Of a DNA stretch of 64,000 nt, positions 12,484 through 58,419 are shown in pieces (within the stretch, counting starts at the first letter, position 1; every line of letters starts with the position of its first letter). A program made the translations under genes and the position numbers. The stretch spans positions 797 to 64,796 of the forward strand of contig JACQLT010000002.1 of the NCBI GenBank assembly GCA_016203945.1. Reading direction: 5' to 3'. The notes below the pieces were generated by a model that searched no databases, was not told where the DNA came from, and saw only the letters and a program-made list of their open reading frames with translations. Origin of the DNA: Parcubacteria group bacterium. Its GTDB lineage: Bacteria > Patescibacteriota > Minisyncoccia > Minisyncoccales > UBA10102.

Positions 12484-13899
12484 TTATATACTGGTATTTG
12501 ATCTGGAACTGTTGTAATCGTCGGCTGCTTGTGCATGCACCTCAATAATTATGGCGCGGAGGTTTTCTATGTCTGTTTTAAGCTCCGCGGCTATGGCGCG
12601 GGCTTCTTCCGCAACTCCTCCTACATTTTCGCCCAAAAGCAGCGATTCATATTTCGCCTTAAGCTCTTCCATCTTTGCCTCGTTTTCAACGCTCATACTT
12701 TTAGCTTTCTCAATAAGCGGGGCTGTTGATGATGTATCAATCCCTTGCGCTTCAAGTTTTAGAATCCGCAATTCCAGCCGGCCTAAAATATGGTCAAACC
12801 GGGCCATTGCCGAGCGGTAACGATTGAGCATGCGCAATCCTTTGCCGTGGGCAACGGCAATGCGCGCCGTTTTTCCGTGATCCACATGGCCTATTGTTGT
12901 TTCAACATTTTCTCGGAAATTATCGCGAAGCGCTTTTGCGGCTTCATGAACTGCGGGCTCACGAACCTTCTGTACGGCCGGCAGTAATAAAGCGGATCGT
13001 TGTAGATCTGATAGCGCCGAATCGGTCTGATGTAAGAGCGCCCGCTCCAGTCCCAACACATCCGCAATCAAACCCTTGTCTTCCACAGCCGCAAGCAACT
13101 CAATGTCGCCCTCAACAATCTTTTTTACGGTCAGAAGCGACTGGATTGCCTCTTCTTTTCTGCCGTCTTTGATCGCCTTCTCTGCCTCAGTCGTCACGTC
13201 CGCCCTGCTCTTTGCATGGTCCCCAACCGTTATGCATACCTTTGTATCACAACCCTTGAGCCGTTCCTGTATCTTCCCAATGGTATTCTGCATCAACTCA
13301 ATCTTTTTACCAGGGATTCCTTGAATTTTAATATATGATTTAGATTGCGGGGTATCTCCTGCGCTAGGAGCAGAAACTTTACGTTGGTTTCCATCTGTAT
13401 CCTCAATCTGTGTTTCTCCTGCAGGTGCCGATTTAGTGTTGGATTTGGACTCGTTGTAGTTCTTTCCCGCGGCTGGAGCAGGAACCGCCCCTGAAGTAAA
13501 TTCTTTTTCGGGAGAATCAGCTCTGCGATCGGGAAAGCCGTGTGCGTTACCGTCTCCTGCAGATTCTTTTGTAGCAGAATCAGCTCCGGCGCCAAGCTCA
13601 TCAAGTTTTGTTAAAACTTCCTGGATGCCAGGGTCGCTTACACCAAATCTAACTAGCATCGCCCTGAGGTCAACCGTGCTAATGCCTCGAGCAAGAGCAT
13701 CCGTCACCTCATTGATCTCCGCGCCGCCAATGCCGTAGCGCAAAAGAATATCTCCAACGTGTTTGTTTGCTATTGGTATGTTTACTACTGATATTGAGGT
13801 ATTTGACCTCGAGCTGTTGTAATCGTCGGCAGAAAATACAGCCGCAGCAGAGAGTACCGCTGCCCCCACGATGAATATTGTGATTATTTTTATACGCAT
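12484..13899 (-). CDS. hypothetical secreted protein with identical 13-aa terminal peptides
   Basis: Signal peptide MRIKIITIFIVGAAVLSAAAVFS. ADDYNSSRSNTSI follows it directly and recurs as the last 13 residues. Helical C-terminal half; no family recognised. Confidence 0.6.
   Translation of the reverse strand: MRIKIITIFIVGAAVLSAAAVFSADDYNSSRSNTSISVVNIPIANKHVGDILLRYGIGGAEINEVTDALARGISTVDLRAMLVRFGVSDPGIQEVLTKLDELGAGADSATKESAGDGNAHGFPDRRADSPEKEFTSGAVPAPAAGKNYNESKSNTKSAPAGETQIEDTDGNQRKVSAPSAGDTPQSKSYIKIQGIPGKKIELMQNTIGKIQERLKGCDTKVCITVGDHAKSRADVTTEAEKAIKDGRKEEAIQSLLTVKKIVEGDIELLAAVEDKGLIADVLGLERALLHQTDSALSDLQRSALLLPAVQKVREPAVHEAAKALRDNFRENVETTIGHVDHGKTARIAVAHGKGLRMLNRYRSAMARFDHILGRLELRILKLEAQGIDTSSTAPLIEKAKSMSVENEAKMEELKAKYESLLLGENVGGVAEEARAIAAELKTDIENLRAIIIEVHAQAADDYNSSRSNTSI
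12487..12525 (-). repeat. C-terminal ADDYNSSRSNTSI coding copy
   Basis: GCC GAC GAT TAC AAC AGT TCC AGA TCA AAT ACC AGT ATA. Confidence 0.85.
13792..13830 (-). repeat. N-terminal (post-signal) ADDYNSSRSNTSI coding copy
   Basis: GCC GAC GAT TAC AAC AGC TCG AGG TCA AAT ACC TCA ATA. Same peptide; differs from 12487-12525 only at synonymous sites. Confidence 0.85.
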
Positions 13900-17087: not shown

Positions 17088-18180
17088 CTAGTATAGCAGA
17101 CGGAGCTCGGCTTCGATAAACTCGTCCAGGTCGCCATCCAGCACAGCTTGCGTGTCTGAAGTTTCAATGCCGGTCCTCATGTCTTTTATCATCTGATAGG
17201 GATGCAGTACGTATGACCTGATCTGGCTCCCCCATTCAATGCTGGATTTCTGGCCCCTGAGCTTTGCCAGTTCCCCCTGTCGCTCCTGCTCTTTGAGCGC
17301 ATACAGCTTTCCCATAAGCTGCTCCATCGCTTTCTGCCGGTTCTCCTGCTGGGTTCTTTGCGTTTGAGAGCCCACAATAATGCCGGTTGCAAGATGCGTA
17401 ATACGTATTGCGGTTTCCCGCTTGTTTACGTTCTGGCCTCCGGGGCCAGAGGCCCGGAACACATCCACACGGATTTCTTCTGGCTTAACCCGAATTTCTT
17501 CTTCTGCGGATTCTGTAATGCGCGGAATCACTTCTACTGCGGCAAACGAAGTGTGGCGGAGTTGTTGGGCCGAAAACGGAGATATGCGCACCAACCGGTG
17601 CACTCCGCTCTCGCGCTTCAGTTGCCCAAACACATACTGCCCTTTGATTTCAAGCGAAACCTGCTTGGTGCCGATCCTGCCTTCTGGTCCCGGATCTCCA
17701 AATGATTGGCTCAGGATCTGCGTATTCCATCGTTTTTTCTGGCAGTAGCGCTCGTACATGCGCAACATCATGGTTGCCCAGTCTTGAGCCTCCTGTCCTC
17801 CGGCTCCCGCGGTAATGGTGAGAATTGCGTCGTTCCGATCATATGTTCCCGACAAGAATATTTTGCGTTCTTCTTGCGCGATACTTTGCTCAAGCGGTGC
17901 AAGCTGACCGGCCATCTCGCCGTCTCCCGCAAGCTCCAAGAACTCACGGATTTCCTGAACCTGTTTCTTGAGCCGCTCTATGCTTTGACTGGCTTCTCTG
18001 AGCTGATCGAGCTCTTTGCTCAGCTGCACCGCGCGCTCTTTGTCCTGCCAGAAATTCGGAGACTCAACAAGCGTTTCCAATTCTTTAATCCGCTTCTCCT
18101 TCTTTCCAACGTCAAAGACGGTCCGCCAGCTGGCGGATCTTATCTTCCAACTCGTTCAAATGCTCCAACGTTCCTTTCAT
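17088..18180 (-). CDS. prfB: peptide chain release factor 2 (requires a programmed +1 frameshift at 18111-18117)
   Basis: SPF (RISPFSAQ) and GGQ (SGPGGQNVNK). Frame 0 reads MKGTLEHLNELEDKIRQLADRL then TGA. The +1 frame continues DVGKKEKRIKELETLVES..., joining the 330-aa ORF. Confidence 0.92.
18111..18117 (-). promoter_or_regulatory. RF2 autoregulatory +1 frameshift site CTT TGA C
   Basis: rc of 18111-18117 = CTTTGAC, the canonical prfB shift heptamer. Confidence 0.85.
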
Positions 18181-22764: not shown

Positions 22765-23223
22765 TCAGAGCATAGTACGCAAACCTTTGTTTGTCAAGGC
22801 CTCATCCAATGCCTCGTTGACCATAGCGTCAGCCACCTTGTTCTGTTCTCTGGGCACCGCTTCAAAAGAGACGCTCTTGAAGTCCAGTTTGAGATTCCAG
22901 AGCTGAAGAAAAAACTGCTGCGTGGTTGGATGCTCCACCTTATACCTCCCCGTCATCTGTTTGACCATGAGTTCTGAGTCAGCGCGCACGAGCACATCCG
23001 CCTTCTTTGTTTTTCCTTTTCCAATGAGAGCTTTCAGTTTCTTGAGGGCTGAGATTGCCGCTCTGTACTCTGCTTCGTTATTCGTCGTTGTTCCCAAAAA
23101 CTCTCCTTGCTTCTTTATCAGGCGCCCTTGCGTATCATAGATGGCAAATCCCAAGGCAGCCGGGCCCGGGTTTCCCCGCGCTCCCCCGTCCGTATACAGG
23201 ACAAACGAATTATATTCGGACAT
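22765..23223 (-). CDS. rnhA: ribonuclease HI
   Basis: LYTDGGARGNPGPAALG, TNNEAEYRA, D/E catalytic pattern. Confidence 0.88.
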   Translation of the reverse strand: MSEYNSFVLYTDGGARGNPGPAALGFAIYDTQGRLIKKQGEFLGTTTNNEAEYRAAISALKKLKALIGKGKTKKADVLVRADSELMVKQMTGRYKVEHPTTQQFFLQLWNLKLDFKSVSFEAVPREQNKVADAMVNEALDEALTNKGLRTML

Positions 23224-24370
23224 GGGTTTTAAAATAGTCGGCTAAACACGCGTTAAATTTTTCCAGGTTCTCGTTTTTCAGCCTAAAGCCCGATGCCGGA
23301 GAATGCCCTCCGTACCGCTCCAGCAAATCTTTGCATTGCTCCATGGCCTGCACCGTGTTGAATCCGGAAGAGGCCCGTGCGCTTCCCAGACTCCCTTCTT
23401 TACGCTTCTTGAACAGGAATACGGGTTTTGCTTCTTGGTTTGTAATAATAGAAGCAACGCTCCCCAGCAATTCGTAGTCAAACGATTCGTCTCCTTCAAA
23501 TACGAGAGGTTCCTCTTTTTTTAAGGCGATGCGTTTTCTCACCTCCTGGGCCAATTGGCGCACGCGTTCTCTTCTGATCTTGGTCTTCTGCGAAAAATCC
23601 TCCACCATCGCTCGCGCCTCGTCCATGGATTGCGTCGTGAGCAGGCGGAACCCGCCAGGATATCCATCTGCCATGTCGCGAACGTTCAGCAGACCTACCA
23701 TCTGCTCCATGGCAACCTGCCTACTTTCCCGCACCAGTTCCTCTTCACGTTCTAGGAACGCCCGAATGCCGGGTCTCCAGGATTCAAAGAAGGCATCCAT
23801 GCCCTGCTCTATGATCAAAAGATTGTCCTGCTGCCGGGGCATCATGTCAGCTACCGTACCCAATGCGGCGAGTTCAAGAAAACTCCTTTCAAGAGCGGGA
23901 GATAGTTTAGACCCGAGCATTGCTTTTGCGGTCAGGAACGCGAGTCCGCACGCGGCAAACCCTTTGAAGGGATACTCGTCTCCCGGCTGCTTGGGGTCCA
24001 CGACGATATCAGCTACAGGCACCCTTCCCAAGATCTCGTGATGATCAATGATGATCACTTCAAAGCCGAGCTTTTTTGCCTCTTTTACTTCTTCAAAGTT
24101 TCCGATGCCAAGATCTGCAACAATCAAGAGGGCGGGAGCCAAGTGCTTGAGCTCGGCTAATGCTTTCGGGGTAAGACCGTATCCATCGTGTTCCCGGTTG
24201 GGAAACGTCGTAGCGGCAACCGTTCCTCCGAGACTCTTGATCGCCTCTCCGAGAATAATGAGCGAAGAGATGCCGTCTAAGTCAGCGTCCCCGTACAGGA
24301 TGATGCGCTCTAATCTGACTGCCGCCTGCCTTATTCTTGCTGCAGCTTTTGTGAGATTCTTAATTTCCAT
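23210..24370 (-). CDS. DHH/DHHA1 phosphoesterase (RecJ-core / NrnA-like)
   Basis: GDADLDGISS, IIIDHH, GGHSPASGF. ATG 24370 (MEIKNLTK) is preferred over the longer ORF. Confidence 0.75.
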   Translation of the reverse strand: MEIKNLTKAAARIRQAAVRLERIILYGDADLDGISSLIILGEAIKSLGGTVAATTFPNREHDGYGLTPKALAELKHLAPALLIVADLGIGNFEEVKEAKKLGFEVIIIDHHEILGRVPVADIVVDPKQPGDEYPFKGFAACGLAFLTAKAMLGSKLSPALERSFLELAALGTVADMMPRQQDNLLIIEQGMDAFFESWRPGIRAFLEREEELVRESRQVAMEQMVGLLNVRDMADGYPGGFRLLTTQSMDEARAMVEDFSQKTKIRRERVRQLAQEVRKRIALKKEEPLVFEGDESFDYELLGSVASIITNQEAKPVFLFKKRKEGSLGSARASSGFNTVQAMEQCKDLLERYGGHSPASGFRLKNENLEKFNACLADYFKTHVRI

Positions 24371-25424
24371 CGTAATATCCCAATGCCGCCAATCCCGGAA
24401 GCCGATCTCCCGCAAGAAACGCGAGCAACGCCCCCCCTCCGGTTGAGACATGACTGAACTTATCCTGCAATCCCTGCTTTCGCAAAAACGCGTTTAGATT
24501 TCCTCCGCCGGCAACCGAATACGCATGGCTCGCAATGACGGCCTGAGCCAGGGCGAGAGATCCTTTCTTATATTCCTCCTCTTCCACCCTCCCCACGGGA
24601 CCCGACCAAAATACGGTTTTTGCGTCCTTTAGCATCTCGCAAAACAGCGCGATGGTGCCAGGTCCGATATCAAAATTCAGTCCGTTGCCCGGATTCCCGT
24701 CAACTGGTTTCACAACCTTCTGCATATTCTTAAACCGTATGTTCTTTAACTCAAGCTCTCTGGCGATGAGATTGCTCACCAGAAGCGCGTCCGCGGCCTC
24801 GGAAATCGTATCCAGAAAATCCGCCTTGGTCTCCACCTTTGTGCCCCCGACGATGACGACCATGGGCTTTGCGGGGTTCTTGAGCAAGGGTTCTAGGGCC
24901 CGTACCTCTTCAAGAAGCGCCAGCCCAGCGAACGAAGGAATCAAAGAGGGCAGCTGGTCTATTGATGCATGGGCCCGATGGCTCGCGGAAAACGCTTCGT
25001 TGACGTATTGGTCTCCCAGACGAGCCAACTGTTTGGCGAACTCGGGGCTGTTCTTTTCTTCTCCTTCATGGAAACGCAGGTTTTCAAGCAAGAGCACGTC
25101 TCCCGGCTTTATCGCCAGGATTGCGTTCTCCACATCCTTGCCGACGCAGTCATCCGCCTTGTTCACAGGGATGCCGAGAAGCGAAGCCAGCTGAGAGCGT
25201 ACCGAGTTGAGCCGAAATCGCTCCACTACCTTGCCTGCGGGCCTATCCAAATGGCTTATGAGAATGACCTTTGCCCCCTCTTGCACCAGGTATCGTATGG
25301 TTCTGAGCGCGGAAACAATGCGCAAATCGTCCAGAATATTGCCCTGCTCATCTAAAGGAACGTTGAAGTCGCATCGAACAAGCACCCGTGTATTAAGGAC
25401 CTGGGCCTGCTGGATGCTCTTCAT
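24360..25424 (-). CDS. pgk: phosphoglycerate kinase (short form)
   Basis: RCDFNVPLDEQG, ISHLDRP, VVIVGGTKVETK, STGGGALLAFL. Confidence 0.92.
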   Translation of the reverse strand: MKSIQQAQVLNTRVLVRCDFNVPLDEQGNILDDLRIVSALRTIRYLVQEGAKVILISHLDRPAGKVVERFRLNSVRSQLASLLGIPVNKADDCVGKDVENAILAIKPGDVLLLENLRFHEGEEKNSPEFAKQLARLGDQYVNEAFSASHRAHASIDQLPSLIPSFAGLALLEEVRALEPLLKNPAKPMVVIVGGTKVETKADFLDTISEAADALLVSNLIARELELKNIRFKNMQKVVKPVDGNPGNGLNFDIGPGTIALFCEMLKDAKTVFWSGPVGRVEEEEYKKGSLALAQAVIASHAYSVAGGGNLNAFLRKQGLQDKFSHVSTGGGALLAFLAGDRLPGLAALGYYDGN

Positions 25425-27101: not shown

Positions 27102-28373
27102 CTACTCTTGGGGAATGTTTGGGACGGCCTGCCCCTTCTTGGTTTCCACCCGCTGCACAGCTTGGGTGGTGACGGTCATCTCCGACGGGATATGGAAAAT
27201 CGTAGCCATCTCTTCGGTATTGAGCAAATACATGCCGCGTACGGCATCCGGGAAAAACGGAGGGAGGCGCTTCGTAAAGTTTCGAAAAAGGCGGCGTTTG
27301 CGCGTAAACACCCGTCTCCTATCCAAAAACCAAAGAGGAATGGTGTGTACCTTGGTTATGGTGTCCCGCAATGGACGCATATTGTTCAGGTTCCACGTGC
27401 TCAGCTGGCTGAAAAAGCTCATCACGACGGCTTTTGCCGGACTGAAGTAGTTCTCGCGCTTTGCTACGTACATAAAACGCATGGATGTCAAAAACCCGTA
27501 CTTGCCGATCTTCTCTTCAATGGCGGTGACAATGACCTTCTCCCCTGGCGTCAGCTTCATTTCCGGAGGAATGATTTCCTGGGCTTTCGGGGCTTCCGGC
27601 AGCTGGCCGGTGATCAAAAGATTGCTAGACGACTGAAGCTGACCCCTCAGAGAGGTGTCGGCTGCCTTGGGCCTGCGCACGAGCACGTCTACGATCTTTT
27701 TCCCGACCCCGTTATACTGATACTCAACTTGCGTAATCGGACGAAGCAAGAACTGAAGCCACAGCTGCTCTCCGGGTCCCAACGTCGTCAATCCTTCCAA
27801 GAGCAGAGCCAAAGGGTCCATGCGTTTCTCCTCTGGCGTCATCATGCTTTCTTCAAAAAATTTGGCGTAGGTCTTGATGGGATACACGTCTGGCTTCTCT
27901 AACATGTAATTCGTGCCCCAAAGATCCCAATCCTTGTTTGGGATATCCTGGGGAACGTTTTTCGTATAGTCCTCAACTTCGCTGAGCTCCGCATCCTGGT
28001 ATTGCGAGTAAATGGCAGACTCAATGAGCTTGCGGGAAGCCCGGGGAAAACGCATATAGAAATGGATTGATCCTTCAATGGAAACGATTTCCAGAGAAAT
28101 CCTGAGAAGATATTTTCCTTCAAACCACTTCTCCCTTGGATTGGCGGGGTCATACATCTGCCAAAATCCCATGAATACGTTCTCCATGGTTTGAATGGGC
28201 CGGAGCACTTGCCGAGGAAACATCAGCTCCAACATCATGTACGGGTTGTACGTGTCAAACACCTCCATGCGCCACCACAGCCACAAGAAGCGTGCCGGGG
28301 GAAACAGGACAAAAGGAAAAAAGAGCCACCACCAGGCGTCTAGAAATTCCCAGAGTAAGTTAAGCAAAGACAT
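27102..28373 (-). CDS. hypothetical membrane-anchored protein (partner of the ATPase)
   Basis: ATG 28373 (MSLLNLLWEFLDAWWWLFFPFVLFPP...) lies 5 nt after the upstream stop. N-terminal Trp/Phe-rich hairpin and a large soluble domain with no family recognised. Confidence 0.6.
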   Translation of the reverse strand: MSLLNLLWEFLDAWWWLFFPFVLFPPARFLWLWWRMEVFDTYNPYMMLELMFPRQVLRPIQTMENVFMGFWQMYDPANPREKWFEGKYLLRISLEIVSIEGSIHFYMRFPRASRKLIESAIYSQYQDAELSEVEDYTKNVPQDIPNKDWDLWGTNYMLEKPDVYPIKTYAKFFEESMMTPEEKRMDPLALLLEGLTTLGPGEQLWLQFLLRPITQVEYQYNGVGKKIVDVLVRRPKAADTSLRGQLQSSSNLLITGQLPEAPKAQEIIPPEMKLTPGEKVIVTAIEEKIGKYGFLTSMRFMYVAKRENYFSPAKAVVMSFFSQLSTWNLNNMRPLRDTITKVHTIPLWFLDRRRVFTRKRRLFRNFTKRLPPFFPDAVRGMYLLNTEEMATIFHIPSEMTVTTQAVQRVETKKGQAVPNIPQE

Positions 28374-28378
28374 ATATG

Positions 28379-29395
28379 CTATCTGCGATAGGAATATCTT
28401 TCCTGCTCGTCTTTGGCAAAGAGAGAGCGGTCCTGAAGGTTCAAGAGCACCGTGCTCGTCTTCACCTGGCGCAAGCGAAGCACCTCTTGTATGATAGCAT
28501 CTTTTTTCATTGGCTGCTGCTTCTCCTTGAGTATGCCCACGATAACATCCTTGACGGTGCCCGGCGCAACCCCCCACTCTGCGAGTGCGTATGTTCCCCT
28601 TCCGACGAGCACAAATCTCTTATCTTTAATGAGCTCGTTGTGCACGGTCTGCACGAGCGTGGAAACCTGTCTCTTCTGAAGTCCGAGCGCGTCAATGAGC
28701 TGGGCGACTTCGCGGAAATGGAGGGGATGACGCTTGTGCTTGAGAACGATATATGCGCGATCTCTCACTCCCCGGGGTTTTACCTCGGGCCATTCCACAA
28801 GTCCCCATTTTCCTTCAAAGGTCTGCTCAATATCTTTGGCAACTTCCAAATGCGACGCCAATATGCGATCCTCCAGGGAACGCGCAAGCTCGTTGAACTG
28901 AATGGGTTTCCCCTGCGACTCCAACCGCTGTCTGAGCTTTTGGAGAATCCCAGGAAGGATTTTGCCCAGGTCTCTTCTCTTGGTCCAGAACGAATAGAAA
29001 TTGTCGCTCTCCTTCTCTCGCACGAGATCCTGGGCGAAGGTCAAAAGAAAAGCAACTGAATTCTCAAGAGACGAGACCCGATCGGTCAGTTCCTGCAGCA
29101 GCAGGTCTTCCCGCCTGAATCCTCCTGCCTTTGCCAGCAAGGATGAGGTGAGCTCAAAGAGCTTTGAGGTCGCATGCTCTTTTTTCTCTTGATTCAAGAG
29201 TTCCTGGATTTGCTTCAATCCCCCGGCCTCAATCTGGCGGATCCGTTCGCGCGTGACGCCAAAGCTCTGTCCTATCGCTTCAAGGGTTTGCGGCCCCTCT
29301 TCCTGAAGCCCAAACCTCCGAGACAGCACATCCCTGGTTCTTTCTTCTACAGAAGCTAGAAGTGCTAATGAAAGCTTTTGATAGTCGATTGCCAT
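28379..29395 (-). CDS. DNA-binding protein: sigma-70 region-4-like HTH plus HARE-HTH-like winged helices
   Basis: RDVLSRRFGLQEEGPQTLEAIGQSFGVTRERIRQIE (region 4.2-like) and HNELIKDKRFVLVGRGTYALAEWG (HARE-HTH-like). Confidence 0.7.
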   Translation of the reverse strand: MAIDYQKLSLALLASVEERTRDVLSRRFGLQEEGPQTLEAIGQSFGVTRERIRQIEAGGLKQIQELLNQEKKEHATSKLFELTSSLLAKAGGFRREDLLLQELTDRVSSLENSVAFLLTFAQDLVREKESDNFYSFWTKRRDLGKILPGILQKLRQRLESQGKPIQFNELARSLEDRILASHLEVAKDIEQTFEGKWGLVEWPEVKPRGVRDRAYIVLKHKRHPLHFREVAQLIDALGLQKRQVSTLVQTVHNELIKDKRFVLVGRGTYALAEWGVAPGTVKDVIVGILKEKQQPMKKDAIIQEVLRLRQVKTSTVLLNLQDRSLFAKDEQERYSYRR

Positions 29396-47556: not shown

Positions 47557-49584
47557 TCACGGATTCTGCCCGAGAGAAGATATGCGAAGTTTCGCTTTCA
47601 GAAGCTGCTCGTACTCTTTCCGAAGTAGTTCGAATACCGCATCCTGATCATATTCCCGCTCCACCTTTTTTCTCCCCTCCTCCCCCATTACTTTGGCTTC
47701 TTCCGGATGAGAAAGAATATGCTCAATCGCCTCCGCCAGCTTTGCTGGATTACTGGAAGGAACCAGGAATCCCGTCTTTTTGTCATCCACCCCCTCCCTG
47801 CATCCTCGAATATCAGAAGCCACAACAGGTCTCTTCATCGCAGAGGCCTCTAAAATGGAGAGCCCCAGTCCTTCCCTGTACGAAGGCAGGACGAAGACAT
47901 CCATAACGGAATACAGCTCGATGACGTCTATGCGCTCTCCAAGAAACAGCACCTTGTCCCGGATGCCGTATGTATCAACAATGTTTTTATCCAGCGCATC
48001 TCTTTTTTCTGGCTCCTCCGGTCCTATGATAAGCAGTACTGTATTCGGAAATCGTTTTAGGATTTGGACAAACGCGGCAAAAAGAGGAATAAATCCCTTT
48101 TCTCTCACCAAGCGAGCCACAATTCCAACAACCTTCGTATTGAGAGGAACGCCTATTTCCCGCTTCTTTTGCGCGATGAACTCTTTTGAAAATCGACTCG
48201 GATCAAATTTTCGAAGGTTAATGCCTCCTCCGACATATATTACTTTTCCAGAGGGGTAAATCCCATGACCAGTTAAAAATGCGACATCTTCCTTGTTTAC
48301 CGAAAATGCCTTATGGACGATTTTTGCGATAATCCTCTCTATGGGAATAAAGATGAATTTCTTTTGCCAGGAAGAATCTTTCTGAAAATAGAGCCCGTGA
48401 ATGGTCGTGATGCGAACTGGAACTCTTGCGAAGAATGCCGCGAGCTGTCCCAAGAAACTTGCCTTGGGCGTATGAGTGTGCACAATATCAAATCGCTCTT
48501 TTTTGAAAAACCAATAAAGTCTAAATAATGCCGCAAGGTCTGCAATTGGGGTAAAGAGCCGCCTTGTAATCATAGTGGTCTGCACCTTTATTCCGGTATT
48601 TCTGATTTCTGGCACCCATTTCCCATCCGAAGATGCCGCATGCACCTCGTATTTCTCTTTCTGAAGGTAGCGCATAAAATCCAGGAGAAGAAACCGCAGA
48701 GAAATATCTGCGGACGCCACCTGGCATATTTTAAACATACGATCCTGTTCTTTGTGGGAACGAGCTCCCCTTAATTGATACCCCATCCCTTTTATCCCTC
48801 GCCTCAAAGAAGCAGGGACAAGATAGCTCACATATCCTCTTGCAATGCCAAGAGAGGCCCGCAAGCTCTTTGGGTAAAACCCCTCTCTAAGAGCTTTCTG
48901 TCTTGCCTTGAGCGCAAAGAGCGCCTGTTCTCTGTTTCTGGTCCGCGTGATGGAATCAGGGGCAAATCGGTAGGTGGTCAAATATGCAGAGAGATTCGCA
49001 GTGTCGTAGAATTTTGCAATGCGGAAATAAAGCTCGTAATCTTGAGTGTATTTCCAGCGCTCATCGTACCAGCCAACCTTGTCGAGGGCCTCTTTTCTCA
49101 TCATGATGGCCGAGTGTACGAATGGGTTAGTGAAAATAAGCGCTCTTTTGAGGGCGGCGCTATCTGTGGGAAGTTTCTTTTTGTTCGCTATGGTTCCCTC
49201 CTTGTCCATCTCATACGCCCAGGTGCCCAGAAGGGCGCAGGAAGGATTGGCTTCAAGAAACTCCACTTGAAGCTGAATCCTTTCCTTGTGTGCGATGGCT
49301 TTGTCGTCTACACGAGCAATATACTTTCCCTTCGCTTCCCTCAAGGCCTTGTTGAGAGATTTGGTAAGGCCAAGGTTTGTTTGATTGCTCAGGAGCCGGA
49401 TCCTTGCGTCTCGAACGGCGTATTCTTTGAGTATGTGAGAAGTTTCATCCGAAGAAGCATCATCTACGATAAGAAGTTCCAGATTTTTGTAGCTTTGAGA
49501 AAGAATGCTTTCTACGGACTCTTTGAGAAGCGAAGCGCGGTTGCGAGTAGCCATGACTACGGAAACAAGAGGTCTGTTTTTCAT
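47557..49584 (-). CDS. bifunctional glycosyltransferase, GT2 (N-terminal) + GT4 (C-terminal)
   Basis: VSVVMATRNRASLL..LELLIVDDASSDET (GT2). REGLGLSILEASAMKRPVVASDIRGCREGV (GT4 E-x7-E region). Confidence 0.85.
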   Translation of the reverse strand: MKNRPLVSVVMATRNRASLLKESVESILSQSYKNLELLIVDDASSDETSHILKEYAVRDARIRLLSNQTNLGLTKSLNKALREAKGKYIARVDDKAIAHKERIQLQVEFLEANPSCALLGTWAYEMDKEGTIANKKKLPTDSAALKRALIFTNPFVHSAIMMRKEALDKVGWYDERWKYTQDYELYFRIAKFYDTANLSAYLTTYRFAPDSITRTRNREQALFALKARQKALREGFYPKSLRASLGIARGYVSYLVPASLRRGIKGMGYQLRGARSHKEQDRMFKICQVASADISLRFLLLDFMRYLQKEKYEVHAASSDGKWVPEIRNTGIKVQTTMITRRLFTPIADLAALFRLYWFFKKERFDIVHTHTPKASFLGQLAAFFARVPVRITTIHGLYFQKDSSWQKKFIFIPIERIIAKIVHKAFSVNKEDVAFLTGHGIYPSGKVIYVGGGINLRKFDPSRFSKEFIAQKKREIGVPLNTKVVGIVARLVREKGFIPLFAAFVQILKRFPNTVLLIIGPEEPEKRDALDKNIVDTYGIRDKVLFLGERIDVIELYSVMDVFVLPSYREGLGLSILEASAMKRPVVASDIRGCREGVDDKKTGFLVPSSNPAKLAEAIEHILSHPEEAKVMGEEGRKKVEREYDQDAVFELLRKEYEQLLKAKLRISSLGQNP

Positions 49585-50327
49585 ATGCGCTTTCTGAGAA
49601 AAAACTTACGAAAAAAAAATTTAATGTCGTACCAGAGAAAAAAGGGGATCAAGGCAAGCCCTTTGATCTTTGCTTTTTGTTTTGCTTTCTTCAGATCTTC
49701 TCCGCCAAGCACCAGGGAAAGCGCTTTTGCAAGTTGCGCAGGGGCTGGTTGAAGTTCCAAAAATGCGATGAGTTTTCTCATGGTGCCTTGGGTATTCTCG
49801 AGCATTTCTTCATAGGAAATTTCAAGCGTCCGGAGATCAGGGTTTCTTTCAAAAAATTCTTTAATGCGCTCTTCGTACACACGAGTAATTCGTAAGGCTT
49901 CATCTCTCCGCATCCCTGACCTCTTCTGTAAGGACTCGGCAATCTGGTTGGGATTTCTCTTGCAATGAATAAAATAAGGATTTCTCAAGAAGGGAAAGTA
50001 GAGAGATATGGTGAGGCTCGTACGAGGATCTTTCCAGCCCCAAAGATCTCGCTCTGATCTTGCAATAAGATTTTTTATTCTTGGAGCAAAACGATCTCTA
50101 ATCGCTTCAAGCTCGGAAAGAGAAGGGGGGTGAGCCGCGTCTCCATTCGCTGCGAGCAGGAGGGTATCATTCAGCTCTACAAATTCCGCATTCTCAAAAT
50201 GGCCGAGGGGATTTGAGGATGTCGCTCCAATCAGCTTCTTTCCCAGATGCACCCCCAAGACATTCAAGATGCTTGCTGTCAAAGAGGTGCCGGATCGATG
50301 CATGCCAATCACGACTATGGTTTTCAT
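49581..50327 (-). CDS. PAPS-dependent sulfotransferase family protein
   Basis: VVIGMHRSGTSLTASIL matches the 5'-phosphosulfate-binding loop of sulfotransferases. 4-nt overlap with the GT gene. Confidence 0.7.
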   Translation of the reverse strand: MKTIVVIGMHRSGTSLTASILNVLGVHLGKKLIGATSSNPLGHFENAEFVELNDTLLLAANGDAAHPPSLSELEAIRDRFAPRIKNLIARSERDLWGWKDPRTSLTISLYFPFLRNPYFIHCKRNPNQIAESLQKRSGMRRDEALRITRVYEERIKEFFERNPDLRTLEISYEEMLENTQGTMRKLIAFLELQPAPAQLAKALSLVLGGEDLKKAKQKAKIKGLALIPFFLWYDIKFFFRKFFLRKRI

Positions 50328-50339
50328 GAATGAGAAGAA

Positions 50340-50873
50340 TCACCGAATATATCCATGTCCTTTCAGATAATCAAGAATCTTTTGCTTGTTTTCTTCGATG
50401 CTCGCAGTATCCGTATGAAGTTCTATGTTCGGGTTTTCTGGAAATTCGTATGGATCGGAAACTCCGGTAAAATTGGGGATCTCTCCTCTCTCTGCTTTTT
50501 TATACAACCCTTTTTTATCTCTCTGTTTACAAACCTCCAAAGAGCAACTGCAGAATACTTCAATAAAGTTTTGAACCTCCTTCCGCACCCCTTCCCTCTG
50601 CGCCCGATACGGAGAGATAAAAGAAGCTATCACTCCGACACCATTTCGACTCAGCAACGCGGCAAGAAATCCAACCCGTCTGATATGTTCGTCGCGATCC
50701 TCCTTTGTAAAACCGAGGTCTTTCCAGAGGTGCTTGCGCACAAGGTCTCCGTCCAAGCGTTCTGCAAGATACCCTCTTTGCTTGAGCTCTTCCTCTACTC
50801 GGTCTCCCAGAGTTGTTTTTCCAGAACCTGAGAGGCCGGTAAGCCAAAGTACAAATCCTTTTTGCATGTGCAT
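50340..50873 (-). CDS. cysC: adenylyl-sulfate (APS) kinase
   Basis: WLTGLSGSGKTTLG, LDGDLVRKHL, VIASFISPY. ATG 50873 lies just after the upstream stop. Confidence 0.9.
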   Translation of the reverse strand: MHMQKGFVLWLTGLSGSGKTTLGDRVEEELKQRGYLAERLDGDLVRKHLWKDLGFTKEDRDEHIRRVGFLAALLSRNGVGVIASFISPYRAQREGVRKEVQNFIEVFCSCSLEVCKQRDKKGLYKKAERGEIPNFTGVSDPYEFPENPNIELHTDTASIEENKQKILDYLKGHGYIR

Positions 50874-50877
50874 GTTC

Positions 50878-51714
50878 TTACTCTTCTCTCGTGGAAAGTT
50901 TTTCTGGATCTTCAATGCCCTGAAGTTTCATCAACTCTGCGTTCAGGGATTCTCCGGCTTCGTGTAATCTGAGCTCTAAACCTTTTTCTCTTGCAAAATG
51001 AATGAAAGCCCGCATATCTTTTGGAAAACATTTCCCTCCGTAGCCCCGATATCCGCTATGGCGCACATCAAGATGACTCTGCCCAATGCGAGGATCAGCT
51101 CCTGCACATTCTCTGACCGCTTCATAGTCAATGCCGAGCTGCTCGCAGAGGTCTGAAAGTTGGTTTGCAAAAATCACTTTGAGGGCCAAAAATGTATTGC
51201 CAAAATATTTCACCATTTCTGCTTCCTCTGCCTTGATTATTCTTGCAAGTGGCGCGCGAGGAAGCATCTCTAAAATCTGCTGGGCCGCTCCTTGGCTTTT
51301 CTCTGTATATCCAACAATCTGTCGCAACGGATGCAGCATATCTTCCAGCGCTCTACTCTCTTGGAGGAACTCGGGGTTGTAGAGAAACGTATGGTGAGGA
51401 TATGCCTCTTGCAGCCTGGCGGTGGTGCCAGGCAGCATAGTTGATTTGAGTACGACCACTTTTTGCCCTCCTATGTTGCGGCATGCCTCCTCTACAAAAG
51501 ATAGGTCTACTTTTCCTTCTTTGGTGGAAGGGGTGGGCACACAGACAAACATTACGTCTGCCTTGTTTAGTTCTTCAAGAGAACCCATTCGCTTTGGGGG
51601 ATCATACAGCAAAGGAGTCATGCCCTCCCCTTGAAAATAGTCGGCAAGCGCCCTTCCCACGGTTCCCACGCCAATAATTCCTATGCTCACACCGTTGTTT
51701 TTCTTATGGGGCAT
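50878..51714 (-). CDS. UDP-glucose/GDP-mannose dehydrogenase-family protein lacking the C-terminal domain
   Basis: IGIIGVGTVGRAL, NPEFLQESRALEDMLHP, catalytic-Cys context GYGGKCFPKD. Only 278 aa. Confidence 0.7.
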   Translation of the reverse strand: MPHKKNNGVSIGIIGVGTVGRALADYFQGEGMTPLLYDPPKRMGSLEELNKADVMFVCVPTPSTKEGKVDLSFVEEACRNIGGQKVVVLKSTMLPGTTARLQEAYPHHTFLYNPEFLQESRALEDMLHPLRQIVGYTEKSQGAAQQILEMLPRAPLARIIKAEEAEMVKYFGNTFLALKVIFANQLSDLCEQLGIDYEAVRECAGADPRIGQSHLDVRHSGYRGYGGKCFPKDMRAFIHFAREKGLELRLHEAGESLNAELMKLQGIEDPEKLSTREE

Positions 51715-55709: not shown

Positions 55710-57097
55710 TTATTGGGTGGACAATTGATCTTCAAGAAAAGGATAGCACTGATCTTCAAGAAATCCAAAGTTGGTGTCAAAGTAGAGGTCAAAGAGAAAA
55801 CGGAAGGTGTTCACCGCGCTCATGTCAGAGGGAAGAGCAGCATCTTTTCCGGGAAGATAGTATGCCCCAAAGTTTCGTAATTTTCTCCGTGCGCAACCTT
55901 CCCGGATCTTGAACCCTTCCACATACGTTGTTCCATGATCTGACTGGATAATCACCACCGGGGGTGCTGAACCTGAGGCCGCAAATATTTTTTCTACCGC
56001 CTCCATGAGCTTTTTATTCGTAAACTTGAGTTGCTCAAGATATGACGAATCAATAGCTTCTCCGTTCTCGCCAAAAATAAATGGCGCGTGAGGAACTAAA
56101 ATATGCGCCATCACGAACTTTGGACCCTCAATCTTTGCCGCCTTTTCTATGTCGGAAAACGCACCCAGTATTCTGCCCCGGTGATCAATAACATGGCCAA
56201 GTACGGTTATGCTCTGCACGATGCGGTAGAAATCATTATTCGTGAAGTTAATGTCTGCCTCCTCTCCTGTCATCATACTGGAACCCGACCCTATAAATAT
56301 GAACTTGTACCCTTGTTCTTTGAGAAACCTTATAACCTTGTTATTTTCGGCAAGCTCTCTCGTATTTTCAAAATCGCTGGAAGAAAGATACTCCATGTTG
56401 AGAGTAGAAGACAAGGAAAGGTGTGTAGCGGTGTAGTTGCTCCTACTGTTTGTAACCACTTGAAAGCCGCGAGAACGCAGATACCCAAGAAATTCCGCGT
56501 TGTCATATTCAAGAAATCGCTTGAGAGCTTCGGAATTTGCATAAGCATCGGGAACGATGTAGTAAATGTCGGGCAGCGCCCCCCCTCAGAGGACGAGGAG
56601 AGAAGCGTATGTTCCGGAGATATCCGGCGGTGAGTAAGTTCATACGCCGCTAAGTTTCCAATCTGCAGAAGTAAAAGAACTCCAAGGGTGAAAGATAGGG
56701 GTTTTAGAATTTTATGCCAATGGGTTTTTAATCTGACAGCGACAAGAAATATAGCTCCCCATACAAAACCCCAGACCAATAGAGATGTTCTTTGACGCGG
56801 AAAATCCCGCCAGAAAACTCCTTCGACGTCAAATAACCCGGAAAGTCTTACGTAAAAAAATCCATAGTACCAAAAAGCGCACATGAGGAGAGAGGCAACA
56901 AGAGATGCGAAAAACACATCTCTGGTAAAAATCCTCGCCAGGAAAAATACGGCAAGGGCGCCAGCTGCACTCAAAAAGAGGGGAAGCCAGAGCTCTTGGC
57001 GCAAAAGCTCCTGGCGATTGTGGCTGAAAAGAAAAAGAACTGGGAATACGGATATGGCAAGACAGGGGAAGAAAGCTATAAGCGTCTGTTTCTTCAT
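55710..57097 (-). pseudogene. frameshifted paralogue of the 52674-54104 membrane transferase
   Basis: ORFs 56330..57097 and 55710..56459 align to the N- and C-terminal halves of the 476-aa protein. The frames meet at a G7 run (C7 on plus, 56579-56585). Confidence 0.8.
56579..56585 (-). repeat. homopolymeric G7 tract at the frameshift point
   Basis: TCT GAG GGG GGG CGC as sequenced. G8 (or G5) would read ...SEGGALPDIYYIVPD, matching ...AEAALPDIYYLIPD of the paralogue. Confidence 0.85.
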
Positions 57098-58419
57098 GTT
57101 TTTCCTATGGTATCGCGAACCCTCAGCGCGAGTAAAGAAAGAAGCGCAAGGAACGCGGGGATGCGAATACGCATATACACTCCAAAATTGCTTACGATGA
57201 ACAACGAAAGAAGCCCGAGGAGGCCGATCCCGAAGAGCACCACCGGAAGCATCATTCTCCAGCGCTTATGAGAAACAACAACGCCCTTGGCAATGAAGAA
57301 AAAGAGGGCATACCACCACATCGTTTCTCCAAGAGTCAGCCAATGACGAGGATACTGGAACTGCCACGGGAAGGGCCCGAAGGAAACAACAAGAAACGAG
57401 CGTATGGAGTTGAAAAGAAAGCTCAAGGGATTTTCGGTCCCGGCTTGTACCACCACCGTAGAACCGCGACCCCTGGGCAGCTCCTGGGGCTGGGAAGGGG
57501 GCCGTTCAGGCTCTGAAGAGCCTTCAGGCTCGATGAGTTGAGGCTGTTGAGGTTGAGATATACTTGGCGCATAGGCTACCTCCCGATACAAGCGAATGAC
57601 GCTGGGCCTGAGGAAGTGAGCAGCGGTGGAAAGTCCGTAGTACCCATGCCCGGACAATTGGGGCAAAAATCCCAGCAAGGGCACAATGACAAGGGCGCAT
57701 ACTGCCTTGCGCTTCCTTGGCATGCGCAGAAGAAAGGCAAATGAAATGAGAAAGACCAAGAGCGCGACAAATCCGATATAAAAGCGAAAGTGAATAAGGA
57801 GGGCCAACACGCCGTACAGCGCAAAAAATGTCTTCCAAGAGAAACGTCCAAGAAATCGCAGGGTGAGCCAGAGGGAAAAAAGCGCAAGAAACGCAACAAG
57901 GCTCTCCCGCAAGAGCAAGCTTCCAAAATACAGCAGGCTGGGATAGAGCGCCGCAGCAACCCCTGCCCCCATTGCGAGAGTAGGAGAAGCTCCCAACTCC
58001 TTTGCGATGAGATATACAAGGATCACCGCGAGAACGGCAAACCATACGCTAAGCATAATACCAATAAGTTCTTCTCCTATCGTGAGCGCATAGGCAGCTC
58101 CCAGTACTGCGGGATACCAATGAGGAGCGCCTGTCTGCTTCACATGCCCTTGTATGGCAGAGAAAGAAAAGTTCCCTTCCCGAAAATCCTGTGCGATCGC
58201 AACGGCTGTATCGTGATAAATAGGGCTGTCTCCTCTTCCTCCTCCGAAGGGATAGAACTGGGTATAGAAAATCACAAAGGCTGCTGCAGCATGCAGGGTT
58301 AAAGCAAAGAAAAAGAGAAGGAGAACCTGTTTGGACGCAATCTTTGTTCTTTTGAGTACGAGCAGGGTGCCTGCCGTCAGAAGCGCAAGAAAAGCGATGC
58401 TCACCAAAAATGTCGCCAT
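57094..58419 (-). CDS. polytopic membrane protein, GT-C-like glycosyltransferase or glycan polymerase candidate
   Basis: At least 10 TM helices, GGRGDSPIYHDTA in the first loop, and a P/Q/E-rich loop (SQPQQPQLIEPEGSSEPERPPSQPQ). Family not firmly recognised. Confidence 0.55.
   Translation of the reverse strand: MATFLVSIAFLALLTAGTLLVLKRTKIASKQVLLLFFFALTLHAAAAFVIFYTQFYPFGGGRGDSPIYHDTAVAIAQDFREGNFSFSAIQGHVKQTGAPHWYPAVLGAAYALTIGEELIGIMLSVWFAVLAVILVYLIAKELGASPTLAMGAGVAAALYPSLLYFGSLLLRESLVAFLALFSLWLTLRFLGRFSWKTFFALYGVLALLIHFRFYIGFVALLVFLISFAFLLRMPRKRKAVCALVIVPLLGFLPQLSGHGYYGLSTAAHFLRPSVIRLYREVAYAPSISQPQQPQLIEPEGSSEPERPPSQPQELPRGRGSTVVVQAGTENPLSFLFNSIRSFLVVSFGPFPWQFQYPRHWLTLGETMWWYALFFFIAKGVVVSHKRWRMMLPVVLFGIGLLGLLSLFIVSNFGVYMRIRIPAFLALLSLLALRVRDTIGKT

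Follow-up and report, generated by a model that had tools for sequence, protein, structure and literature searches.

Why would a bacterium of the Candidate Phyla Radiation (CPR) carry, inside an operon for a cell-surface glycan, both a kinase of sulfate activation and an enzyme that could use its product? The question is raised by a 64,000-nucleotide (nt) stretch of contig JACQLT010000002.1 from a Parcubacteria group bacterium (hereafter the window, meaning the whole 64-kb stretch analyzed), in which cysC, encoding adenylyl-sulfate (APS) kinase, is followed by a gene for a 248-amino-acid (aa) sulfotransferase. Our answer is that this bacterium probably sulfates its surface sugar polymer. The APS kinase and the sulfotransferase are intact, are translationally coupled to surface-glycan glycosyltransferases, are conserved and are under purifying selection. 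Because the pair is embedded in the glycan operon and translationally coupled to it, sulfation is implied. The route that we favor, and hold to be likely though well short of certain, is O-sulfation of a lipid-linked glycan in the cytoplasm, dependent on 3'-phosphoadenylyl sulfate (PAPS), with APS supplied through an unlinked ATP sulfurylase gene (sat).

Identification of the sulfotransferase and the APS kinase

The sulfotransferase is 100% identical to MBI4122936.1, entered as "MAG: sulfotransferase [Parcubacteria group bacterium]" (MAG, metagenome-assembled genome). Two Pfam models match it above their cutoffs, Sulfotransfer_3 (PF13469, 54.7 bits, cutoff 27, E 2e-14) and Sulfotransfer_1 (PF00685, 32.9 bits, cutoff 22), and no NCBIfam model does so in a search of that collection. 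The 5'-phosphosulfate-binding loop, GMHRSGTS, occupies residues 8-15 and follows a strand at residues 2-7; the 3'-phosphate motif, KDPRTSLT (residues 99-106, within WGWKDPRTSLT at 96-106), comes after a strand at residues 95-99; and a further motif, NPLGHFE, lies at residues 39-45. An alignment of 46 sequences of the family has 16 invariant columns, all of which are kept by the window protein. The GMHRSGTS loop is nearly invariant among these homologues, and the residues invariant across the subfamily include N39, P40, G42, E45, W96, G97, W98, K99, P101, T103, T106 and R124.

Because a sequence search against the PDB gave marginal matches only (E 0.14), a comparison of folds was needed. The AlphaFold2 model of the protein (pLDDT 95, pTM 0.90) yielded 38 Foldseek matches in the PDB at E<=1e-3, nearly all of them sulfotransferases, as are all of the top matches. 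The best is 4gbm, the sulfotransferase domain of CurM (E 1e-6), and the list takes in TPST1/2, the OLS sulfotransferase domain, Stf1, Stf9, Stf0, SULTs and 3-OST, at TM-scores of 0.4-0.57 and sequence identities of at most 19%. We conclude from profiles and model that the 248-aa protein is a member of the PAPS-dependent sulfotransferase superfamily with that predicted activity, its fold and cofactor site being established at the level of the modeled structure. The C-terminal residues, ~221-248, form the end of a long helix that is basic and aromatic, and probably serve as a membrane-interface anchor.

The mechanically called cysC ORF (50340-50915, minus strand) reaches a TTG at 50915, but translation likely begins at the ATG at 50873 (or 50867), 4 nt past the TAA of the upstream gene. 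It contains GLSGSGKTTLG and FISPY, and it matches PF01583 (205 bits), TIGR00455 (238 bits, cutoff 138.7) and NF002059 (245.3 bits, cutoff 244). The Synechocystis APS kinase structure 5cb6 aligns over the full length (190 bits), and the P-loop, LDGD and ISPY motifs are in register. By these profiles the ORF is predicted, at the equivalog level, to encode a canonical APS kinase.

Only 12 nt separate the stop codon of cysC from the ATG of the sulfotransferase gene, and the stop of the latter overlaps the start of the next gene, a fused glycosyltransferase of families GT2 and GT4, as ATGA at 49584-49581, a junction that we read in the sequence. An earlier note, made from the sequence of the window, had described this arrangement (a GMHRSGTS sulfotransferase, joined to the GT2+GT4 gene by a 4-nt overlap and preceded by a cysC with GLSGSGKTTLG and FISPY) and had proposed that the glycan, or a lipid or peptide, is sulfated. 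The ORFs, motifs, profiles above cutoff, model, folds and junction bear out the description; the proposal gains support from the profiles and structure model together with the synteny, the purifying selection and the occurrence of the family in glycan loci of many phyla, as described below. The note had also named what would speak against it, either failure of the protein in sulfotransferase profiles or a genome with no route to APS together with decay of cysC; the protein matched the profiles, and cysC, with its motifs intact and a low ratio of nonsynonymous to synonymous substitution rates (dN/dS 0.10), shows no decay.

Conservation and selection

The trio of a short nucleotide-sugar dehydrogenase, cysC and the sulfotransferase recurs in related genomes. 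Four loci from Rifle and other groundwater metagenomes (L002-L005), in which the sulfotransferase is 83% identical to that of the window, have the order dehydrogenase (266 aa), cysC (175 aa), sulfotransferase (248 aa) and glycosyltransferase. A more distant locus (L010, 52% sulfotransferase identity) has the same trio and is syntenic with the window down to the PglF-like, PG_binding and MurB genes. In a Nei-Gojobori comparison of the window with L002, dN/dS was 0.105 for cysC and 0.29 for the sulfotransferase gene. The synonymous divergence (dS) was 0.29 for the sulfotransferase gene and 0.61 for cysC, and was saturated for the dehydrogenase gene (59% protein identity); such sharp differences between adjacent genes suggest mosaic recombination within the locus.

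Because both genes are under purifying selection, we read them as not decaying: they are kept by selection in a locus that has no sat, and decay is unlikely. One could still regard the pair as a non-functional remnant of a former sat-cysC-sulfotransferase cassette, given that Sat is missing where a related locus has one and that a neighboring paralogue in the same operon is frameshifted. Yet both ORFs are intact and have all of the family-invariant residues, the dN/dS values of 0.10 and 0.29 were obtained over dS of 0.29-0.61, and the arrangement without sat persists across lineages down to 52% sulfotransferase identity. We consider the remnant explanation very improbable.

The glycan operon and a proposed pathway

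The region from 43.5 to 64 kb is a tightly packed gene array on a single strand which, by domain content, is a cell-surface glycopolymer operon (Table 1). All of its genes point the same way, from 43552 past 63996, and the gaps between them do not exceed 49 nt, apart from one of 160 nt. Its order from 43552 upward runs against the direction of transcription, with the dehydratase first and the C-terminal part of a protein of the iron-containing alcohol dehydrogenase family last. Between the 476-aa LtaS/EptA-like protein and its frameshifted paralogue lies a methyltransferase-like protein, and beyond the polytopic protein are two GT4s and a further epimerase, a TagF-like glycerophosphotransferase, a nucleotidyltransferase and the alcohol dehydrogenase-family fragment. 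The sulfotransferase gene is thus embedded among the glycosyltransferase and precursor genes of one surface-glycan operon, as in the xss cluster discussed below.

Table 1. Genes of the glycan array, in window coordinates.
Product	Position	Strand	Evidence and remarks
Membrane-anchored UDP-GlcNAc 4,6-dehydratase, PglF/WbpM/CapD type, 609 aa	43552-45381	minus	PF02719 (371 bits), PF13727; partial matches to PseB and FnlA
Sugar aminotransferase, DegT/PglE/PseC type, 377 aa	45378-46511	minus	PF01041 (405 bits); TIGR03588 (326 bits, below cutoff)
Hexapeptide-repeat sugar N-acetyltransferase, NeuD/PglD-like, 133 aa	46529-46930	minus	PF00132; TIGR03570 (69 bits, below cutoff)
Small polyprenyl-phosphate phosphoglycosyl transferase, PglC type (initiating enzyme), 204 aa	46936-47550	minus	PF02397 (210 bits); TIGR03025 (255 bits, C-terminal catalytic part of model)
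Bifunctional GT2 + GT4 glycosyltransferase, 675 aa	47557-49584	minus	PF00535 (residues 8-170); PF13439/PF00534 (residues 301-639)
PAPS-type sulfotransferase (predicted), 248 aa	49581-50327	minus	PF13469, PF00685, AlphaFold2 model, PDB folds
cysC, APS kinase (predicted), 175-177 aa	50340-50873	minus	PF01583, TIGR00455, NF002059
Short nucleotide-sugar dehydrogenase, UDP-glucose dehydrogenase (UGDH) family, 278 aa	50878-51714	minus	PF03721 + PF00984 only; directly upstream of cysC
NAD-dependent nucleotide-sugar epimerase, GalE/TviC-like, 306 aa	51704-52624	minus	PF01370 (223 bits); TIGR01179 (195 bits) and NF011728 (TviC, 191 bits), both below cutoff
Membrane protein with extracytoplasmic alkaline-phosphatase/"Sulfatase"-fold domain, LtaS/EptA-like, 476 aa	52674-54104	minus	PF00884 (30.4 bits, residues 218-409); no NCBIfam match
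Frameshifted paralogue of the LtaS/EptA-like protein	55710-57100	minus	two frames, split near 56582-56594
Polytopic membrane protein, 441 aa	57094-58419	minus	no Pfam or NCBIfam match

In the following scheme the inferred parts are the acceptor, the association with the membrane, the chemistry of the sugars and the origin of the APS. Judging from domain content, the PglF-, PglE- and PglD-like trio would make the nucleotide sugar of a 2,4-diamino-2,4,6-trideoxyhexose, which the PglC-like enzyme would load, as a bacillosamine-like sugar, onto a polyprenyl-phosphate carrier. The GT2+GT4 fusion would extend the chain, with uronic acid probably supplied by the short UGDH-like dehydrogenase and the epimerase. 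CysC would phosphorylate APS to PAPS, from which the sulfotransferase, held at the membrane by its basic, aromatic C-terminal helix, would move the sulfuryl group to a hydroxyl of the lipid-linked oligosaccharide. O-sulfation would take place on the cytoplasmic face, with export afterwards, and the APS would most likely be made by an ATP sulfurylase whose gene lies elsewhere in the genome; in CPR this enzyme is often a ~730-aa fusion with a pyruvate-kinase domain. To our knowledge CPR bacteria generally do not assimilate sulfate, and for this reason we take the dedicated cysC to feed the sulfotransferase and not cysteine synthesis. PAPS reductase was not seen in the window or in any CPR locus that we examined, which likewise argues that the pathway serves sulfation and not assimilation.

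The dehydrogenase upstream of cysC deserves comment. Its NAD-binding and central domains are present and retain the catalytic-cysteine motif GGKCFPKD, and the C-terminal UDP-binding domain is absent; TIGR03026 is matched at model positions 73-295 of 413, and the protein aligns to residues 95-313 of the 444-aa UGDH 3vtf. We asked whether it might be a fresh truncation caused by the insertion of cysC, and we rejected this, as the short family is conserved in relatives. The short form (266-278 aa) adjoins cysC in loci L001, L002, L003 and L010 and lies near it in L007 (L002:4958-5758, L010:3710-4534, L007:6480-7304). The family is large, with well over 100 clusters at 50% identity of 255-295-aa proteins in a representative protein library. 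Its members also occur fused to APS kinase (P0364, 451 aa, the best match at 56% identity), to GT2, to an epimerase, to an NTP transferase, to GT4 and to D-Ala-D-Ala ligase.

Other members of the array can be treated briefly. The 476-aa protein with a "Sulfatase" domain was considered as a partner in sulfur metabolism and rejected, as its membrane architecture is LtaS/EptA-like and its match is a weak one to a generic alkaline-phosphatase-fold model. Its paralogue, 55-58% identical to it, is either a frameshifted pseudogene or the product of a sequencing error. The 441-aa polytopic protein is a candidate polymerase, ligase or flippase. It is one of three large minus-strand ORFs of the window that have no Pfam match, the others being 12484-13899 (471 aa) and 27102-28577 (491 aa). 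The GC content of the glycan locus (46-64 kb) is 0.45-0.49, lower than that of the first half of the window (~0.52). The window as a whole has features consistent with a CPR genome: nearly all genes on one strand, a type IV secretion system coupling protein and minimal anabolism. We also note a second release-factor gene (17088-18080, minus strand, 330 aa, PCRF and RF-1 domains), which starts at a TTG and whose match to the PCRF model begins only at position 9. This may be prfB, with the segment upstream of a programmed frameshift missed by the mechanical ORF call.

Evidence against the proposed pathway

Several observations weigh against sulfation of a lipid-linked glycan with APS from an unlinked sat. 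A Pfam scan of every ORF in the window with 150 aa or more found no ATP sulfurylase, no CysD or PAPS reductase, no CysN, no CysQ and no sulfate permease. A tblastn search of the window with three types of Sat (fused to pyruvate kinase, fused to CysC, and the Sat of Nealsonbacteria), CysD and CysN had no matches other than cysC and the GTPase domain of LepA. The 64 kb therefore contain no ATP sulfurylase of any type, and neither do the contigs (8-14 kb) of the three relatives closest to the window; in the window and in the contigs of the close relatives neither Sat nor CysDN stands beside the kinase, so that a complete PAPS-synthesis module of the NodPQ, CysDNC or Sat-CysC type is not found. 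A search confined to the CPR-type Sat, the pyruvate-kinase (PK) fusion, gave no protein attributable to the MAG of the window among its 120 best relatives. The acceptor, for its part, is read only from the gene neighborhood, and tyrosylprotein and acyl-ACP sulfotransferases are among the nearest folds, their TM-scores (~0.5) as low as those of the carbohydrate sulfotransferases. Finally, no Wzx, Wzy or ABC-2 protein was matched by Pfam within the glycan locus, where no Wzx/Wzy was recognized; MurJ is present in the window, 25 kb away.

The absence of ATP sulfurylase, PAPS reductase and a sulfate transporter from the window had been stated in the earlier note, and our searches agree. The note had speculated, in addition, that a DHH/DHHA1 protein (23210-24451, minus strand, 413 aa) could remove the by-product pAp (3'-phosphoadenosine 5'-phosphate), and this did not hold. 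The best NCBIfam matches of the protein are all RecJ (TIGR00644, 266 bits against a cutoff of 397, model positions 34-425 of 546), and no NrnA-type model of NCBIfam matches at E<=1e-3. A role as an NrnA-type pAp phosphatase is thus unsupported, and the protein looks like a short RecJ-like nuclease.

The specificity of the sulfotransferase cannot be read from its structure, because no close relative has been solved or characterized. The enzyme might act on another acceptor, such as a protein tyrosine, serine or threonine (as TPST and RaxST do), a lipid or a small molecule, in which case its position within the operon would be incidental. Consistent with this, the best PDB folds are the acyl-ACP enzyme CurM and tyrosylprotein sulfotransferases (E ~1e-6, TM-scores 0.5-0.57), and the family has no characterized member. 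However, the fold similarity is equally remote to all sulfotransferase classes (identity at most 19%), the gene is translationally coupled to a glycosyltransferase, and in all of the contexts examined (CPR, Halanaerobiales and a 315-kb contig) the neighbors are GT2/GT4 genes, nucleotide-sugar enzymes or polysaccharide ABC (ATP-binding cassette) transporters. We regard a non-glycan acceptor as unlikely, and a lipid-linked glycan remains our preferred substrate.

ATP sulfurylase in other CPR loci and the source of APS

Relatives of cysC at 65-66% identity include CPR loci that show the source of APS in other lineages. In three such loci from Hainich groundwater (L007-9, GCA_964361475.1) the order is cysC, Sat, sulfotransferase, GT2 and PglC-like, followed further on by DegT and PglF-like genes. 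The Sat there is a 729-aa protein with PK, PUA_2 and ATP-sulfurylase domains, and it lies exactly between cysC and a different sulfotransferase. A Patescibacteria locus (L018, STB_141) encodes a 690-aa Sat-CysC fusion, then Wzm/Wzt, a sulfotransferase-methyltransferase fusion and a GT2+GT4 protein. WsaF is also encoded in this locus (L018:5751-16138), where Wzm is a Wzm-like permease, the Wzt-like ATPase carries a fused methyltransferase, and the sulfotransferase-methyltransferase fusion belongs to the sulfotransferase family of the window; the layout resembles ABC-transporter-dependent glycan pathways with a capped chain end, and by analogy sulfate might be a terminal cap there. In a Nealsonbacteria MAG (GCA_043822745.1) the PK-fused Sat (34-36 kb) and cysC (~67 kb) are on the same contig, 31 kb apart; cysC is alone in one glycan locus, and Sat stands beside two sulfotransferases.

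The PK-fused Sat (~730 aa) combines a PF00224 pyruvate-kinase barrel, PUA_2 and ATP-sulfurylase (for example, L007:10554-12743, L095:6001-8181 and L096:1495-3642), and is common in Nealson-, Staskawicz- and Colwellbacteria. It also occurs in some Ignavibacteria, Bacteroidetes, Bacteriovoracia and Promethearchaeota, and some versions carry an extra C-terminal APS kinase (910-944 aa). These proteins are frequently labeled "pyruvate kinase" or "hypothetical", and a literature search found no paper on the PK-Sat fusion.

By analogy with these genomes, an unlinked sat is the most likely source of APS for the window's kinase. We also weighed whether the lineage truly has no ATP sulfurylase, so that APS, or sulfate activated in some other form, is handed over to the episymbiont by its host cell. 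Such a transfer would fit the absence of sat from the window and from the contigs syntenic with it in relatives with 83% and 52% identity, the absence of a PK-type Sat attributable to the window's MAG among the best 120 matches, and a cysC that is nonetheless under strong purifying selection; moreover, as L007 has Sat between cysC and the sulfotransferase, sat has apparently been lost from the corresponding position in the window. Against it, the window is only about a quarter of its source contig (248,619 bp), and other CPR retain Sat, sometimes tens of kilobases from cysC or as a non-PK type that falls outside the ranking of the Sat search. APS is a scarce and labile intracellular intermediate, and we know of no APS importer. 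Furthermore, He et al. (2021, PMC7906910) report sat from dozens of genomes of CPR bacteria. Supply by the host seems to us improbable, slightly more so than a non-glycan acceptor, and we retain an unlinked sat as the working source.

The wider sulfotransferase family

Members of the sulfotransferase family lie in the glycan loci of many phyla. Among GTDB species representatives we found more than 580 relatives, the best of them 43% identical, from cyanobacteria, Planctomycetota, Paenibacillus, Halanaerobium, Acidobacteriota, Bathyarchaeota, two Patescibacteria and others. On a 315-kb JGI contig (L011), a family member lies among GT2s with a Sulfotransfer_2 gene, cysD, cysN-cysC and a separate cysC, and in Frackibacter loci eight sulfotransferase genes are interleaved with GT2/GT4 genes. 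A cysC was within 10 kb in only 4 of the 80 family loci retrieved. Free-living carriers evidently rely on housekeeping sulfate activation, and the rarity of cysC near their family members fits a dedicated supply in CPR.

Implications for CPR cell surfaces and their annotation

Sulfated polysaccharides are considered rare among bacteria; Maeda et al. (2021, PMC8205485) describe them as essentially restricted to cyanobacteria, and our literature search found no paper on sulfotransferases in CPR/Patescibacteria. In surveys of CPR genomes (He et al. 2021, PMC7906910), sat and cysC have been taken for genes of "sulfate reduction". The position of these genes in glycan operons, beside sulfotransferases, argues instead for sulfate activation in the service of cell-surface decoration. 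It is through this surface that CPR episymbionts meet the host cell they depend on, and the interest of the locus rests on what it implies for that surface and on the question of the missing sat in this lineage. It is possible that sulfated, uronic-acid-containing, glycosaminoglycan-like surface polymers are common in CPR and have been overlooked; such polymers would account for the "sat/cysC" genes that have until now been assigned to sulfate reduction. A bolder proposal, that the lineage has discarded ATP sulfurylase and sulfates its surface glycan with APS scavenged from the host, is one to which we give little credence, as stated above; if true, an activated-sulfur nucleotide would for the first time be seen to pass between cells.

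Two points bear on annotation. The ATP sulfurylase of CPR is a fusion with a pyruvate-kinase domain, and it is often labeled as the latter enzyme. In addition, a large family of UGDH-like dehydrogenases, truncated at the C terminus, travels with these loci.

Comparison with known systems

Rhizobial NodH, together with NodPQ, sulfates Nod factors, and LpsS and KpsS are related glycan sulfotransferases. The likeness to the window is one of logic: a PAPS-dependent sulfotransferase and dedicated, non-housekeeping sulfate-activation genes act in the cytoplasm on a carbohydrate made by neighboring glycosyltransferases. NodPQ, however, supplies both a CysDN-type ATP sulfurylase and an APS kinase, whereas the window locus has the kinase only; NodH has no detectable sequence kinship with the window sulfotransferase beyond the superfamily, and the bacterium considered here is a CPR member with a reduced genome. 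The Nod-factor case is cited by Maeda et al. (2021, PMC8205485).

The xss (synechan) cluster of Synechocystis PCC 6803 has the sulfotransferases XssA and XssE within a Wzx/Wzy exopolysaccharide cluster (PMC8205485). As in the window, sulfotransferases of PF00685, PF03567 or PF13469 stand among the glycosyltransferases of a surface polysaccharide locus, and sulfation of the lipid-linked repeat is presumed. The xss cluster is without PAPS-synthesis genes, its PAPS coming from the assimilatory pathway of the cell, whereas the window has cysC. When we searched plasmids by tblastn with the window sulfotransferase, no Synechocystis record was among the 40 matches listed, and a close kinship to XssA/XssE is not shown. 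Clusters for sulfated polysaccharides outside cyanobacteria were stated to be unknown (Maeda et al. 2021, PMC8205485); in contrast, the GTDB search places the family of the window sulfotransferase in many phyla.

Nearest in operon logic are the CPR loci L007-9 and L018, which share the set of short UGDH, cysC, sulfotransferase, GT2, PglC-like, DegT and PglF-like genes, with cysC 66% and the short UGDH 47% identical. They differ in that Sat is present, fused to PK in L007-9 or to CysC in L018. The sulfotransferase of L007 (326 aa) has no tblastn similarity to that of the window, and the one of L018 is fused to a methyltransferase and adjoins a Wzm/Wzt exporter. The solved sulfotransferases (4gbm, CurM; 3ap1, human TPST2; 1tex, 2zq5 and 2z6v, mycobacterial Stf0, Stf1 and Stf9) share with the window protein the fold and the positions of the 5'-phosphosulfate loop and the 3'-phosphate motif. 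Beyond the low identity and TM-scores given above, the window protein differs from them in being shorter, with a long C-terminal helix and with NPxGxxE and WGWKDPRT motifs of its own. Set against all of these systems, the module in the window has only the kinase half of the activation pathway, an uncharacterized PF13469 subfamily of sulfotransferase, and a CPR bacterium as its host.

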